A stretch of 16,736 nucleotides of DNA from Verrucomicrobiota bacterium (GTDB lineage: Bacteria > Verrucomicrobiota > Verrucomicrobiia > Limisphaerales > CANJXF01). This document shows, one piece after another, positions 10,995 to 16,736 of this stretch; within the stretch, counting starts at the first letter, position 1, and each line of letters begins with the position of its first letter. The stretch covers positions 1 through 16,736 of the forward strand of contig JBBQRQ010000109.1 in NCBI GenBank assembly GCA_038214755.1, written 5' to 3'. Made by a program: the position numbers and the translations under genes. A model generated the notes under the pieces. It searched no databases. It saw only the letters and a program-made list of their open reading frames with translations, and was not told the DNA's origin.

Positions 10995-11094
10995 TGACTG
11001 CAACCGTCAGCTCCGATTTTCCACGCCAATTTCATTGCGATAATCAGGCGGTGGAGTAACGTCGCTGCGCACCCGGTTGTGTGGACAAAATCAG

Positions 11095-14000
11095 ATGACC
11101 TCATTCTTCATTTTCACGACGCGCCAGTTTTTTCTAAAACAATTCCTCGCGTTGATTTTGATCGGCGGCTCGACTCATGCCCTGCTCGCGCAAACCAATC
11201 CTGTCATTACCACACAACCGTCGAGCCAGACGAATTTTGTCGGCTCCAACACGATCTTCACCGTCGTCGCCGATGGCGCGGCACCGCTGGTTTATCGCTG
11301 GCGTTTCAATGGGGCAACGGTGGTGGATAATTCCCGCATCAGCGGCTCCGCCACTTCCAGCCTCGCCATTTCAAATCTCACTACGGCTGACGCTGGAAAT
11401 TACGATGTGGTCCTCACGAATAGTTTTGGTTCGGTCACGAGCGCCGTGGCTACGCTGACTGTTTTGCAATCGCCCACCTTCCTCGCGCAACCGGCGGGCC
11501 GCTCCGTCGTCTTCGGTTTGCCGACCACTTTCAGCGCCGGTGTCGTCGGCACCGCGCCGCTGAGTTACCAATGGCAATTCAACGGCACGGACATTCCTGA
11601 CGCAACGAACGCGACTTATTCAATCGCATCGGTGGCCGCGACTGATCTCGGAATTTATCGCGTCATCGTGAGCAATGAAGTGGGCGTGGCGACGAGCGCG
11701 GATGCGTTATTGACGCGTGGAAAAATTGTGGCGTGGGGAAGAAATGATTCTGGGCAAACCATTGTTCCAGCGAACCTCACCAATGTAATGATGGTGGCGG
11801 CGGGTGGAATCGGAGGAAATCCCGGATTTAGTTTGGCTTTGCGAACGGACGGGTCAGTCGTCGGTTGGGGAACCAACGGTGATCGCCAGAGGGATGTTCC
11901 CGTTGAATTGAGTAACGTCGTCGCGATTGCCGCCGGTGGAAATCACAGCATGGCGTTGCGCTCCGACGGGAAGGTTTTTGCCTGGGGCTCCAATGCCAGC
12001 GGACAAACGAACGTTCCGAGCTTGAGCAATATCGTAGCGATCGCCGCAGGCGCATATCACAGCCTGGCGTTGCGTTCTGACGGAAAAATTTTCGCATGGG
12101 GAAATAATAGTTATGGCCTAACCAACGTCGGTTCATTTCCCGCGAATATTACGGCCATTGCCTGTGGGCAATATCACAATCTGGCGATCCGTTACGACGG
12201 CGATTTAGTAACGTGGGGGAGCAATTCCGCGGACCAGACTAATCCGCCCGCGGGAGTTACTAACGTGGCCGGCATAGCAGGCGGTTTTTCGCATAGTCTG
12301 ATTCTTCGCTCCAATGGAACCGTACTTGCTTGGGGCTACTATGGGTATGGACAGCCGATTGTGCCTTTGGACCTGACTAACGTCACGATGGTAACAGCGG
12401 GTGATTATTACAGCGCCGCCCTGCGTTCGAACGGGATAGTCGCCGTCTGGGGACGAAATGATCACGGACAGACTAACGTCCCCACAGTCGCCAGTAATCT
12501 CGTCAGCATCGCGGGCGGTGGATCTCATCTACTTGGTCTGGTTGGCGATGACGCGCCACTCATCATTCAGCCGCCGATTGGCGGTGTGAATTATGTCGGG
12601 CGCGAAGCTGTTTTGCGCGGCAAAGCGACTGGCGCGTCACCGTTAAATTATCAATGGCAGTTGAATGGCGTGGAGATTCCCGACGCGACAAATGCGACAC
12701 TCGCCTTTGCCAGTCTTGCCGCGAACGACGCCGGTAATTATCAACTCGTCGTCAGCAACGCGTTCGGCGTGGCGACCAGCGTCCCCGCGCCACTGACGAT
12801 TTTAGATAACATTGCGCCAACGATTTTGGCGCAGCCGCCGTCGCTTCAAACCAATTTTCAAGGAAGCAAAGTAACGTTGAACTTTTCCGTCGCGGGAAAT
12901 GGGCCGCTAAATTTTCAATGGCGATTGAACGGGACGAATATTTTCGGCGCGACCAATCAGGAGTTGGTTTTTGATCCGATTCTTTTCACCAACGCGGGGA
13001 ATTATTCCGCAGTCATCAGCAATCAGATTGGAAACGTGACCAGCGGCACGTTTACCCAACGGGTGCAGACGATCAGAACGTGGGGCTATTCCGACTTTTC
13101 TTCGACGCCGATAGTAACCAACGTAATTTCGGTCGCGGCGGGATCCTACCATTACCTCGCGCTTCGCTCTGACGGAAAAATTCAAGGCTGGGGTTCAAGT
13201 CAAGTGGGCGAATCGACTCCACCAGAGGCTCTTTCCAATTCAACGGTAACGGCAATTGCAGCGGGACCCCTTGAAAGTTTAGCTTTGCGCTCCGACGGGA
13301 GACCTTTCGCCTGGGGTTCTAATTCTTCTGGTCAGACGAATGTCCCGGCTTCTGCGACGAATGTTATCGCGATTGCGGCCGGTCCTTACCATTCGCTGGC
13401 ATTGCGTTTCGGCGGGACGGTTGTGGCGTGGGGACAGAACATTTACGGCCAGACCAACATACCCGTGACTGCAACAAACTTGATCGCAATCGCGACGGGT
13501 GATTACCACTGCCTCGGCCTGCGAGCCAATGGGACAATCATCGGTTGGGGAAACAACTCTTACGGGCAAACAAACATTCCTCAAAGTGCAACGAACATTA
13601 TTGCCATTGCTGCTGGCACATATCATAGCCTCGCGCTGCGAAATAATGGAACACTCATCGCATGGGGTCTTAACAATGCTGGACAAACAAATATTCCTGC
13701 GAGCTTAAGTAACGTGGTCGCCATTTCTGCTTCGGTCTTTCACAGCACCGCGTTGCGCTCGGACGGAACAAGTGTTTTCTGGGGATCGTATAACCGCAAC
13801 GCTGTGCAACCTTCAGACTTAACTAATTTTATCGCAATCGCCGAAGGTGGTGACCACAGCGTTGGCCTCCTCGGCACGCGCGCGCCTGCGATTACCATCC
13901 AGCCGTTCATTCGAACTCTGTTGCAAGGTTCCAACACAATGTTCGTGGCCAAAGCGGTCGGCGCGCAGCCGGTGAGTTATCAATGGCAATGGAATGGCGC

Positions 14001-15033
14001 GAATGTTTCTGACGCGACCAATGACACGCTGACTCTGACCAATCTCCAATTTTCCCAATCCGGCGCTTACCAGTTGATCGTGAGCAATGCCTACGGAGTC
14101 AGCGCGAGCAAACCGGCCAAGCTCGCCGTCGTGCTTCCGCTCGACGAATCGCTCGACACCACGCAAATCAATTGGGCTTCCCTCGGCAGCGAACCTTGGT
14201 TTGGTCAGCCCGCCACCACTCACGATGGCGTGGACGCCGCGCGCAGCGGCGCGATTGCCAACGGGCAGGAATCGGTTTTGCAAACCAGCGTCGGCGGGCC
14301 GGGGCAAATTTCTTTTTGGTGGAAAGTTTCGTCGGAAGCGGTGTTCGATGTTTTAGAATTCCGCTTGAATGGCGCGGTGCGAGTCACGCTCTCCGGCGAA
14401 ACGGATTGGCAGCAACAAGCCTTCTCCATCCCGTCCGGCACGAACTTGCTCCAATGGCGTTACGCGAAAGATTTCAGTTCCAGCGTCGGGCAGGATGCGG
14501 GTTGGGTGGATCAATTCGTTTACACGCCGAACCCGCCGGTCATCACCATGCAACCCATCGGCAAGACGGTGAACATGGGTTCCAACGTTCAGTTCAATGT
14601 CACTGCGACCGGAGCCGCGCCGCTCGTTTATCAGTGGCGAAAAAATTTCACCAACAACGTCGGCCTCAATAGTTCCACGCTCACGCTCAACAATGTTGGC
14701 CGCGCGCAACGCGGAATTTATTTTGTGATCGTGACCAACGCGGGCGGCAGCGTGACGAGCAGCAATGCCATTCTCAATGTCCTCGTGCCCCAACGATTGG
14801 CTTCGCCGTCCATTCAACCGAATGGAACGTTGATCTTCACCGCGCGCGACGCCGATGGAAATCCATTGTCCGAGTCCGATCTGGCGAGGATGCAACTTCA
14901 GGCGAGCACCAATCTGGTGGATTGGAACACGCTTTCAGGAGGATTGATCGTGACCAATGGGAATTTGCAATTCGAAGATGCCGACGCCACGAATGCGCCA
15001 TTGCGTTTCTATCGGATTGTCGAAACGCCGTAG
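11095..15033 (+). CDS. Large secreted protein: SP-Ig-Ig-RCC1(7)-Ig-Ig-RCC1(7)-Ig-beta-sandwich-Ig-C-terminal motif (~1312 aa)
   Basis: Signal peptide ending THALLA; six I-set-like Ig domains (P.I..QP...YQW..NG...G.Y.V.VSN); 14 RCC1/BLIP-II-like repeats (G.V.AWG.N..GQTNVP...V.AIAAG..HSLALRSD); C-terminal LQASTNLVDW...RFYRI. Confidence 0.92.
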   Translation: MTSFFIFTTRQFFLKQFLALILIGGSTHALLAQTNPVITTQPSSQTNFVGSNTIFTVVADGAAPLVYRWRFNGATVVDNSRISGSATSSLAISNLTTADAGNYDVVLTNSFGSVTSAVATLTVLQSPTFLAQPAGRSVVFGLPTTFSAGVVGTAPLSYQWQFNGTDIPDATNATYSIASVAATDLGIYRVIVSNEVGVATSADALLTRGKIVAWGRNDSGQTIVPANLTNVMMVAAGGIGGNPGFSLALRTDGSVVGWGTNGDRQRDVPVELSNVVAIAAGGNHSMALRSDGKVFAWGSNASGQTNVPSLSNIVAIAAGAYHSLALRSDGKIFAWGNNSYGLTNVGSFPANITAIACGQYHNLAIRYDGDLVTWGSNSADQTNPPAGVTNVAGIAGGFSHSLILRSNGTVLAWGYYGYGQPIVPLDLTNVTMVTAGDYYSAALRSNGIVAVWGRNDHGQTNVPTVASNLVSIAGGGSHLLGLVGDDAPLIIQPPIGGVNYVGREAVLRGKATGASPLNYQWQLNGVEIPDATNATLAFASLAANDAGNYQLVVSNAFGVATSVPAPLTILDNIAPTILAQPPSLQTNFQGSKVTLNFSVAGNGPLNFQWRLNGTNIFGATNQELVFDPILFTNAGNYSAVISNQIGNVTSGTFTQRVQTIRTWGYSDFSSTPIVTNVISVAAGSYHYLALRSDGKIQGWGSSQVGESTPPEALSNSTVTAIAAGPLESLALRSDGRPFAWGSNSSGQTNVPASATNVIAIAAGPYHSLALRFGGTVVAWGQNIYGQTNIPVTATNLIAIATGDYHCLGLRANGTIIGWGNNSYGQTNIPQSATNIIAIAAGTYHSLALRNNGTLIAWGLNNAGQTNIPASLSNVVAISASVFHSTALRSDGTSVFWGSYNRNAVQPSDLTNFIAIAEGGDHSVGLLGTRAPAITIQPFIRTLLQGSNTMFVAKAVGAQPVSYQWQWNGANVSDATNDTLTLTNLQFSQSGAYQLIVSNAYGVSASKPAKLAVVLPLDESLDTTQINWASLGSEPWFGQPATTHDGVDAARSGAIANGQESVLQTSVGGPGQISFWWKVSSEAVFDVLEFRLNGAVRVTLSGETDWQQQAFSIPSGTNLLQWRYAKDFSSSVGQDAGWVDQFVYTPNPPVITMQPIGKTVNMGSNVQFNVTATGAAPLVYQWRKNFTNNVGLNSSTLTLNNVGRAQRGIYFVIVTNAGGSVTSSNAILNVLVPQRLASPSIQPNGTLIFTARDADGNPLSESDLARMQLQASTNLVDWNTLSGGLIVTNGNLQFEDADATNAPLRFYRIVETP

Positions 15034-15208: not shown

Positions 15209-15228
15209 ATGTAAAGCCCGACGCTCAA
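15209..15228 (-). pseudogene. 5' remnant of a probable DUF5615 PIN-like toxin gene (TTG AGC GTC GGG CTT TAC AT)
   Basis: TTG overlaps the DUF433 stop (TTGA); MSVGLY(M) resembles the start of DUF5615 partners; the sequence switches to the repeat arm exactly at 15208. Confidence 0.5.
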
Positions 15229-15536
15229 AGTTTTCCAGCGGCGCGCAACCGGCGGCGCAATGGTGAGTCTGTGGTTTCAGCGGCAAGCGTTTCGGCGCGG
15301 CGACGGCTCTCCTCAATTTGGCGATCAAATTCCGCTTGATGATCGTAGTAATAGGCGAGCGCGGCATAAACTTGGGCGAGCGAAAGGTGCCGATGCTGAT
15401 AATGGATTTCTTCGGCACTCCAACCGTAGGCCAGATGATCGAGCACAACTTCGCTGACTTTGACGTTGGTCTCATCAATCCAGGCTCGATGCTGATCGTC
15501 CAGCCAGATATGCGGCATGGAGAGTATCGTTGACAT
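15225..15536 (-). CDS. DUF433-domain protein (putative antitoxin, 103 aa)
   Basis: AWIDETNVKVSEVV...GWSAEEI...HLSLAQVYAALAYYYDH is the DUF433 HTH-like signature. Confidence 0.88.
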   Translation of the reverse strand: MSTILSMPHIWLDDQHRAWIDETNVKVSEVVLDHLAYGWSAEEIHYQHRHLSLAQVYAALAYYYDHQAEFDRQIEESRRRAETLAAETTDSPLRRRLRAAGKL

Positions 15537-15542
15537 AAATGG

Positions 15543-15571
15543 AACGTAATGAAAGTCGTGCCGGCAAACAA
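15543..15571 (-). promoter_or_regulatory. Putative sigma70 promoter (leaderless) for the DUF433 gene
   Basis: Minus strand TTGTTT-17 nt-TACGTT, then 6 nt to ATG 15536. Confidence 0.45.
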
Positions 15572-15612
15572 TGAAAAGTCTCCTGAGATTTTTCGGAAAG
15601 GAATATTTTTAT

Positions 15613-16302
15613 TTACGAACGCGAAGGTAAGCGCAGATTTGCCAACCGTGTTTTCAATGTAGGATCGGCTTCGCGGTATTCGCGTTCGGCTCGTTCCAGC
15701 GCGGGCCGGATAATGCGCGCACGCACGTCGATTTCTTTGCCCCAAAGCATTTGCCAGAGGAGGCGCGTGTTTATCAGCATGTCGCCGCGGGCGGATTCTT
15801 CGTCGAACTTCGGACGGTAGAGATCGACGGCGAGCTGCAGGTGGCGCGCGAATTCTTCTTCGGTGGGATGACCCGTTTTTTCGATGACGAGACGGAAGGC
15901 GTTCTGATCTTTTTCTTCGAGCCGCTGAAGTTTGCTCACGAGCACGTCCCACGGATGCACGAAAACAAATAAGTGTCCGTGGCGCTCAACTTCGATGGCG
16001 CGGCTTCTCCAGTCGATGGTGCTTTTGAAGGCGAGCGGTTCGCAGACTTGAATGTAGAAATCCGTTTCTCCCTTATTCCATTTATTCTCGGTGACGAATT
16101 CTTCGAGAAACGCAGTGGTGGCTTCTTTTCCGAAGAGATCAATATCTTCGCTAAGGAATGTGCGCTCGACAAAAAGTTGCAACGGCGTGGAACCGAAGAC
16201 CGTGATCTCCAATCGCGGATGGACCGGAAGACGCCGCGCAAATTCGTCAAGCCGCTGTCCGGCTTTCCCGTTCCAATCGAGCTTTTCGGCCAAAAATTCC
16301 AT
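15613..16302 (-). CDS. DUF6036-like nucleotidyltransferase (pol-beta fold), 229 aa
   Basis: ITVFGS...SEDIDL (GS + DxD NTase motif) and HPWDVLVSKLQRLEEKD (K..R..KD motif); ATG at 16302 preferred over TTG 16317. Confidence 0.75.
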   Translation of the reverse strand: MEFLAEKLDWNGKAGQRLDEFARRLPVHPRLEITVFGSTPLQLFVERTFLSEDIDLFGKEATTAFLEEFVTENKWNKGETDFYIQVCEPLAFKSTIDWRSRAIEVERHGHLFVFVHPWDVLVSKLQRLEEKDQNAFRLVIEKTGHPTEEEFARHLQLAVDLYRPKFDEESARGDMLINTRLLWQMLWGKEIDVRARIIRPALERAEREYREADPTLKTRLANLRLPSRS

Positions 16303-16474
16303 AAATTGCCTGATCAATTAACCGCGTTGTCACGCCTTTGTCTTGCGCGAGCCGATGGCCAAGACGAACGTCGCGCGGAGTCAGTCGTCCCTGTTCCTCG
16401 CGCAACAATATGCGCGCGGCGATGCGGGCTTTGCGCCAGCATCGGTCGAGTCGTTCGGGCGAATTGTTCGTCAC
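16247..16474 (-). CDS. Small basic hypothetical protein (75 aa), likely partner of the nucleotidyltransferase
   Basis: GTG at 16474 lies 6 nt after a strong -10; Arg-rich helical sequence; overlaps the NTase start by 56 nt. Confidence 0.55.
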   Translation of the reverse strand: MTNNSPERLDRCWRKARIAARILLREEQGRLTPRDVRLGHRLAQDKGVTTRLIDQAIYGIFGRKARLERESRTAA

Positions 16475-16480
16475 GGATGT

Positions 16481-16509
16481 TTTATAAACGCAAAAGGCAG
16501 CGTGGTCAA
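16481..16509 (-). promoter_or_regulatory. sigma70 promoter (leaderless) of the small-protein/NTase operon
   Basis: Minus strand TTGACC-17 nt-TATAAA (5/6 and 5/6 consensus), then 6 nt to GTG. Confidence 0.65.
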
Positions 16510-16581
16510 AGCACGAACTGAAATGCGACTGCCACTCCAGCGGAATAAAACCGGAACAATTCAGTGCAAAGCAACGCTCGA

Positions 16582-16609
16582 CCTCACCCCGGCCCTCTCC
16601 TCCGAGGAG
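16582..16609. repeat. REP arm CCTCACCCCGGCCCTCTCCTCCGAGGAG, truncated by IS insertion
   Basis: Hairpin ccctctcct-ccg-aggag lacks the final aggg needed to complete the stem; IS end abuts directly. Confidence 0.7.
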
Positions 16610-16736
16610 CAACGGTGTTCAAAAGCAAAGGAAATTAAGCGGGTTGGATTTTGGTTTTTTGGCAATGGAGGGCGTGTTCTTTGAGGAGGCGATTCATTTG
16701 GAGGAGGAGTTTGCGCATGACCGCAGTGAGGGCGAC
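16608..16736 (-). mobile_element. Right end of an IS110-family element (partial)
   Basis: Transposase C-terminus, short non-coding tail ending ...GAACACCGTTG-CT, no TIR visible, junction inside a REP. Confidence 0.75.
16635..16736 (-). CDS. IS110-family transposase/recombinase, C-terminal 33 aa (partial; not in ORF track)
   Basis: Minus strand translates VALTAVMRKLLLQMNRLLKEHALHCQKTKIQPA*, matching the IS110/IS116/IS902 (K)VAL.A.MRKLL...N motif. Confidence 0.8.
   Translation of the reverse strand, partial: VALTAVMRKLLLQMNRLLKEHALHCQKTKIQPA

Follow-up and report, generated by a model that had tools for sequence, protein, structure and literature searches.

Which mobile element is cut by the right edge of this contig, and how did it find the palindrome in which it sits? 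The window, i.e., the whole stretch of DNA that we analysed (16,736 nt), is all of contig C109 of a 5.1 Mb Verrucomicrobiota genome in 175 contigs. Close to its right end, a minus-strand frame (16736->16638, VALTAVMRKLLLQMNRLLKEHALHCQKTKIQPA) runs off the contig edge, and its stop codon is followed by a short tail, the dinucleotide CT and an incomplete REP-like hairpin. We regard it as very likely that an IS110-group element with a 319-aa DEDD/Ser recombinase, of which positions 16610-16736 form the right tip, has inserted at CT in the arm of a REP-like hairpin, guided by a putative bridge RNA from its left non-coding end (LE).

Structure of the insertion and its sister copies

The right end of the window comprises the following features (window positions).

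16638..16736, minus strand: end of the recombinase open reading frame (ORF), last 33 codons (VALTAVMRKLL...KIQPA), an open frame cut by the contig edge
16635..16637, minus strand: recombinase stop codon TAA, read as 16637-16635
16610..16634, minus strand: right non-coding end (RE), 25 nt with terminal CACCGTTG, identical in all five right junctions
16608..16609, minus strand: CT core, the candidate crossover point (AG on the plus strand), present in 5/5 right and 3/3 left junctions
16593..16607, minus strand: remainder of the REP hairpin, loop and extension-side arm, with the right target half-site CCTCGGAGGAGAGGG
16561..16592, no strand assigned: one-sided G+C-rich REP extension CCTCACCCCGG (16582-16592) and further conserved repeat-unit bases, delimited by repeat matches genome-wide

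The contig thus breaks 127 bases into an insertion sequence. On the minus strand, the CT is followed by CCTCGGAGGAGAGGGCCGGGGTGAGG (16607->16582); on the plus strand, the repeat runs as CCTCACCCCGG and then as CCCTCTCCTCCGAGGAG (16593-16609), which ends at 16609, four bases (AGGG) short of the full palindrome. For bases 16561-16609, the genome contains dozens of matches at 82-100%, and other copies of the repeat do go on with AGGG, as seen at 133 uninterrupted sites of the 11-mer CCCTCTCCTCG in the genome and in loose contig ends of run X1 at 16609. The RE is the left donor half-site and contains the TTG of a possible -35 box. Adjoining the insertion, on the minus strand at 15225-16317, are genes for a DUF433 protein (1.7e-10) and for a DUF6036/DUF2204 nucleotidyltransferase (2.5e-06), a pair that looks like a toxin-antitoxin-type module; upstream (11077-15033) a 1,318-aa protein with RCC1 repeats and Ig domains is encoded.

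Comparing the last 176 window bases with the genome by blastn, we found the same right end at four other contig ends, namely C14 (97.7% over 176 bases), C81 (96.0% over 174 bases), C30 (96.8% over 156 bases) and C98 (99.3% over 144 bases), the last of which holds a complete sister copy. Element bases 16610-16736 are identical to this full copy, the sole mismatch of the 144-base match lying in the REP loop, and the 33-codon ORF end is identical to the 3' end of the C98 ORF. As the window is the whole contig, the complete element is described here from C98.

C98:1002->43, minus strand: full recombinase ORF, 319 aa from ATG

The initial annotation had taken the frame with VALTAVMRKLL for an IS110 C terminus and had predicted a DEDD RuvC-like N terminus beyond the edge. 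The C98 ORF matches the Pfam families DEDD_Tnp_IS110 (PF01548, 1.7e-17) and Transposase_20 (PF02371, 3e-12), these domain tests having been run on the C98 copy; of the Tnp domain region, the final 33 residues are present in the window. A phmmer search against solved structures gave only two matches, the transposases of ISCro4 (9T56, 1.5e-26) and of IS621 (8WT6, 2.1e-25). Residues D13, E55, D97, D100 and S236 align to D11, E60, D102, D105 and S241 of IS621, which an excerpt of PMC11208158 names as catalytic, and S236-G237 aligns to S241-G242.

Read in recombinase orientation, all five right junctions are CACCGTTG-CT-CCTCGGRGGAGAGGG (more fully ...GAACACCGTTG-CT-CCTCGG(A/G)GGAGAGGG...), identical in REP position and orientation, and all three left junctions (C98 and the ends of C33 and C8) are CCCT-CT-TGTATG (more fully ...(T/C)CCCT-CT-TGTATGTTTG...). 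Each of the eight has one CT and lies in the REP arm that is remote from the extension, the element being directed to the loop. Together, the left and right junctions define an element that has 1,233 bp in addition to one CT core and whose LE of 248 nt is much longer than its 25-nt right end. Left flank, CT and right flank add up to CCCT-CT-CCTCGGRGGAGAGGG plus CCGGGGTGAGG, one intact hairpin without duplication beyond the core, and uninterrupted sites (CCCT-CT-CCTCG) contain the CT once. The element ends, TGTATGTT... and ...CACCGTTG, are not inverted repeats. Outside the repeat, the flanks vary from copy to copy; because they differ past the repeat, the repeat is the target and not part of the element. 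The predictions about the protein are thus borne out in the sister copy, and so is the rest of the anatomy that had been read from the window: the short tail, the CT and the hairpin lacking an arm end are as described, with a right end shared with C14, C30, C81 and C98, the missing REP part expected at the far junction stands there around the CT in all three left junctions of sister copies, and the other copies sought at the same REP position are found in all five right junctions.

Left junctions occur only on C98, C33 and C8, and no partner among them could be assigned to C109. The five right junctions may come from several strains of the metagenome bin and not from five copies per cell. A covariance model of the RNA core (see below) matched only C98 in the whole own genome, the further copies being collapsed in the assembly. 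None of the sequencing runs listed is of RNA, and one DNA run (X1) contains 95% of the sampled window words. Among the contigs of runs X1, X2, X4 and X11, which we compared with window positions 15700-16736, none spans the junction from the unique flank (an 8,349-base contig stops at 16577) and none carries an empty-site allele of the C109 locus. The mean word depth was 23 on the unique part vs ~50 on the element part, contig depths not being equivalent to copy number. The insertion explains where C109 and at least six other contigs end.

The REP-like repeat family

The target belongs to a family of short imperfect palindromes with many intergenic copies, often in inverted pairs and arrays. 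With up to two substitutions allowed, there are 163 hairpin cores in the genome, and 156 of them carry the extension CCTCACCC on one side only; at least 98 of the 133 exact CCCTCTCCTCG sites run on as a hairpin plus the extension GGGTGAGG, counting the twelve commonest continuations. Inverted pairs are ~100-200 bp apart and arrays have a period near 257 bp (examples are C14:1298-2876, C14:65641-66930, C1:94149-94652 and C60:10743-11158), and with its conserved flanks (e.g., GGAACAATTCAGTG...GCTCGACCTCACCCC) each unit resembles a MITE or BIME.

The genome has 17 matches to PF01797 (Y1 transposase), only two of which have a repeat core within 1.5 kb, and then on one side only; none of the 17 is a cognate RAYT gene flanked by repeats. 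Since no RAYT link was found, the term REP is purely descriptive here. Several of the 17 matches lie inside very long open frames (970-1440 aa). An Rfam scan of the REP gave nothing above the gathering score, with a weak match to whalefall-1 (REP at C98:1380-1415; 21.4 bits, gathering score 37, E 0.004); judged by this similarity, the whalefall-1 motif may be a relative of the C98/C109 repeat family.

The left-end RNA and its guides

For the 250 nt preceding the ATG, the folding energy is -126.2 kcal/mol (z -6.3), and 0/200 shuffles were as stable. An alignment of ten distinct left ends has a mean column identity of 71%, and RNAalifold proposes 67 pairs for the whole left end, 27 of them with compensatory change. 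For the 149-column core of these 10 elements, we tested a stated 26-pair structure, in which 95.7% of the cells are paired and 11 pairs have changed on both sides; none of 500 shuffles reached its paired or compensatory values, and with the partners slid by 1-3 columns the pairing was 29-47%. The covariance model of this core gave 22 further matches in 33 sources (120,287 bases), every one of them on the ORF strand and 10-46 nt upstream of the first matched codon. An Rfam scan of the left end returned no family above the gathering score, the best hits being chance-level sRNA matches.

Four guide segments can be assigned in the C98 left end, with left-end positions counted from the first base after the CT.

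C98:1148-1140 (left end 103-111): LTG UUGCCCUCU, agreeing with GTTCCCT-CT in 7/9 positions, 6 of them contiguous
C98:1121-1114 (left end 130-137): putative RTG UCGAGGAG, reverse complement of CT-CCTCG in 7/8 positions
C98:1080-1071 (left end 171-180): putative left donor guide (LDG) AACCGUUGAU, in which the RE bases ACCGTTG recur, agreeing with CACCGTTG-CT in 8/10 positions
C98:1037-1028 (left end 214-223): RDG AAUGUGCAAG, pairing with CT-TGTATGTT through 7 Watson-Crick and 3 G-T pairs

Within a long closing stem, a conserved hairpin separates LTG from RTG; another hairpin lies between LDG and RDG, and the order LTG, hairpin, RTG, LDG, hairpin, RDG is that of IS621, a rule that we took from an excerpt of PMC11208160. 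The initial annotation had proposed that the element is programmed against this REP family by a bridge RNA upstream of the transposase, in a left non-coding end whose guide segments would match the REP flanks and CACCGTTG. The 248-nt left end of the C98 copy has such segments, and the guides and the fold of this putative RNA support the proposal by way of the sister copy. Against its own three left flanks, the LTG matches over 6 contiguous bases only, the three distal positions being mostly mismatched, and the core positions of the LDG are AU instead of CU and variable among relatives.

The ideal target predicted from the guides is TTGCCCT-CT-CCTCGA. No genome site matches it in 15/15 positions; the best sites match in 13 (8 sites), another 174 match in 12, and 121 of these 182 sites with at least 12/15 matches are the distal arm of the REP. 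By direct sequence comparison, the proximal arm (CGGCCCT-CT-CCTCC or -CCCCC) has a poorer RTG match.

A search for related loci yielded 16 with 43-88% best-segment protein identity (45-79% for full-length relatives), nearly all from Verrucomicrobiota MAG records. In a sample of the phylum, 19 of 401 genomes, the source genome included, encoded a relative (E <= 1e-40), with identities of 34-48% throughout. Two loci from Klebsiella pneumoniae MAG records (L007 and L015) combine a Verrucomicrobiota-type element (66-88% protein identity) with a CCGGGGTGAGG-type repeat, and their contigs are probably mis-binned.

Nine elements with differing flanks and a readable right junction allowed a comparison of guides and targets. 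In all of them, the RTG, read as its reverse complement, agrees with core and right flank at 7 or 8 of the 8 positions, the RTG/flank octamers being CTCCTCGG; CTTCGGAA; CTCCCCCA; CTCCCCGT; CTCCCCAT; CTCCCCAA; CTGCCGTA / CTGCCGTT; and CTGGGCTA. Over the six non-core RTG positions, cognate pairs had a mean of 5.44 matches vs 2.78 for non-cognate pairs (0/20,000 permutations as high), and over the seven non-core LTG positions of 10 elements the values were 4.7 vs 3.37 (p 0.009), permutation values that overstate independence because relatives share guides and targets by descent. Guide and flank have changed to sequences that are unrelated, each change on one partner having its match on the other. 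Poor LTG matches were seen in L005 (3/9), L014 (4/9) and L007 (5/9), whose left junctions may be misplaced or decayed, those of L005 and L014 being uncertain themselves. At its left junction (L005:1255), L005 reads CCCT-GG-TATG, not CCCT-CT-TGTATG, and is possibly a decayed or rearranged copy. Three relatives with the same LTG (L004, L006 and L008) occupy the proximal arm of the repeats in which they are inserted, and TTGCCCT-CT fits there in 7-9 of 9 positions.

For a further test, we took two distant multi-copy elements from the phylum sample and read their guides at model-aligned positions. In the first (G237; four copies, 37% protein identity), the LTG UGGAUCCU equals TGGATC-CT in 4/4 copies, and the RTG, whose reverse complement is CTTCACT, fits the flank exactly in two copies and is one base off in the other two. 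In the second (G348; five copies, 34% protein identity), CACCCU matches the left flank, and CT-ACCAT, the reverse complement of the RTG AUGGUAG, is identical to the flank in three copies and one base off in two.

On the 5' side of the target loop, there are two additional hairpins that are conserved. Directly 5' of this loop (C98:1194-1163, left-end positions 57-88), GCCGCCGUCCCCCC GGCC GGGGGGACGGCGGC forms a 14-bp G+C hairpin with perfect pairing, which is maintained through compensatory changes in 9/10 relatives. One relative of 1,113 bp (L006:1338-2452) is without the first two left-end hairpins (~85 nt) and has both guide loops with perfect LTG and RTG matches, which suggests that the 5' hairpins may be dispensable for targeting.

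According to an excerpt of PMC11208158, IS621 rebuilds a promoter across its RE-LE joint. Across the inferred joint of the present element, no sigma-70 pair was found at a threshold of at least 8/12 hexamer positions; at 7/12 there are four overlapping candidates, of which the best, TTGCTT-17-TATGTT, spans the joint and is weak. The TTG stands at the same distance from the core in 8/9 elements, and a TATGTT-like hexamer is kept. These positions agree with a rebuilt promoter of the IS621 type, without proving one.

Interpretation and comparison with known systems

The anatomy, the junctions, the protein family and its catalytic residues, the conserved RNA fold and the target-guide covariation across relatives are all shown by the sequences, and they fit a process of the following kind. 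Site-specific recombination has most probably placed the element at the CT in the hairpin arm far from the CCTCACCCC extension, facing the loop. The choice of target would most likely be made by a bridge RNA from the 248-nt LE upstream of the recombinase gene, a region that in C109 would lie past the contig edge. In its target loop, LTG and RTG would pair with the two strands of CCCT-CT-CCTCG, and in its donor loop LDG and RDG would pair with the joined element ends CACCGTTG-CT-TGTATGTT. By analogy with IS621, the element may be excised to a circle, a promoter may be rebuilt across the RE-LE joint, and strands may be exchanged through a serine linkage next to the core.

Other readings of the window have to be weighed against this one. 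It is unlikely that the window holds nothing but a dead right-end fragment, i.e., a solo end or truncated copy without a complete element. The contig does end 127 bases into the element, and three left junctions stand against five right ones, with no left-junction contig assignable to C109. However, those 127 bases are identical to the full C98 copy, all five ends break 141-144 bases in (the C81 and C30 matches span 141), as is typical of an assembler break at a repeat, and the missing left junctions sit in a repeat unit whose assembly and binning are difficult. That the palindrome is a terminal repeat carried by the element, and not a pre-existing target, appears extremely improbable: the 163 hairpin cores and the 133 exact uninterrupted sites are without an element, left flank, CT and right flank make exactly one intact hairpin with no duplication, and the element is constant whereas the repeats differ from one insertion site to the next, even though every copy has palindrome on both sides and flanks that are alike for ~50 bases past the hairpin.

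A different role for the left-end RNA, e.g., in expression control, with the recombinase reading the sequence or shape of the REP hairpin directly, we consider very improbable. The partial LTG match would fit such recognition, as would ISPpu10, where, according to an excerpt of bioRxiv 10.64898/2026.03.19.712850, the target stem-loop adds specificity beyond base pairing; but a structural gate of this kind would supplement guidance by RNA, not substitute for it, and RTG and LTG track unrelated targets in 9-11 elements, including CT-TCGGAA and CT-GGGCTA, which are not REP sequences. Membership of the IS1111 group, with a guide RNA (seekRNA) in the right end, has next to no probability despite the common protein superfamily. 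That group has a long guide-bearing right end and sub-terminal inverted repeats of 7-17 bp; here, the RE has 25 nt vs 248 nt in the LE, the conserved structured RNA lies in the LE, and a long LE with a short RE marks the IS110 group (excerpt of PMC11208160).

Beyond the preferred reading of a guided IS110-group insertion, the copy described here could, as a possible but rather doubtful extension, be one allele of a natural retargeting series, in which a conserved bridge-RNA scaffold of Verrucomicrobiota-type genomes would have been directed to at least 8 target octamers, mainly through an unusually long RTG of 7-8 nt. The present element would then have moved from the extension-proximal arm, as occupied in L004, L006 and L008, to the distal arm and the other strand with its ancestral LTG kept, and the hairpin may serve as a structural gate by which the three mismatches of the LTG are tolerated.

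Published work already covers the insertion of IS110-family elements into REP sequences, the CT core and a bridge RNA from the left end (PMC11208160, excerpt), the same excerpt gives bridge RNAs as predicted in 85.7% of IS110s, and the C109/C98 element reveals no new mechanism. Compared with IS621 of Escherichia coli (PDB 8WT6; excerpts of PMC11208160 and PMC11208158), the C98 element likewise has a DEDD RuvC-like domain and a Tnp domain with the serine, a CT core, REP insertion, a long LE and a short RE, a left-end RNA with the target loop followed by the donor loop, and LTG and LDG identical to the top strand with RTG and RDG complementary to it. It is an IS110-group member of the IS110 family and probably works in the manner of IS621. 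The two recombinases are distant relatives (E 2.1e-25); the best-scoring solved relative is the ISCro4 transposase (PDB 9T56, E 1.5e-26), with residues 9-299 aligned and the same conserved motifs, a comparison of the proteins only. The many-copy insertion of ISPpu9 and ISPpu10 of Pseudomonas putida, also of the IS110 family, into one repeated intergenic palindrome or stem-loop is similar by description (PMC12288879 and an excerpt of bioRxiv 10.64898/2026.03.19.712850).

Among the matches listed for literature on IS110 and bridge RNA, none mentioned Verrucomicrobi-. What is new is the host group, the repeat family, the long RTG and the natural series of guide-target pairs. The compact recombinase (319 aa) and these natural pairs are candidates for programmable recombinases, and the IS621 bridge-RNA rule can be recognised straight from the sequence of a metagenome-assembled genome in a distant phylum. 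In contrast to IS621, the C98 element has a different REP family and a Verrucomicrobiota-type host, two additional conserved hairpins 5' of the target loop, and RTG pairing over 7-8 nt vs 4 in IS621 (PMC11208160), although longer RTGs are noted for other orthologues in the same excerpt.
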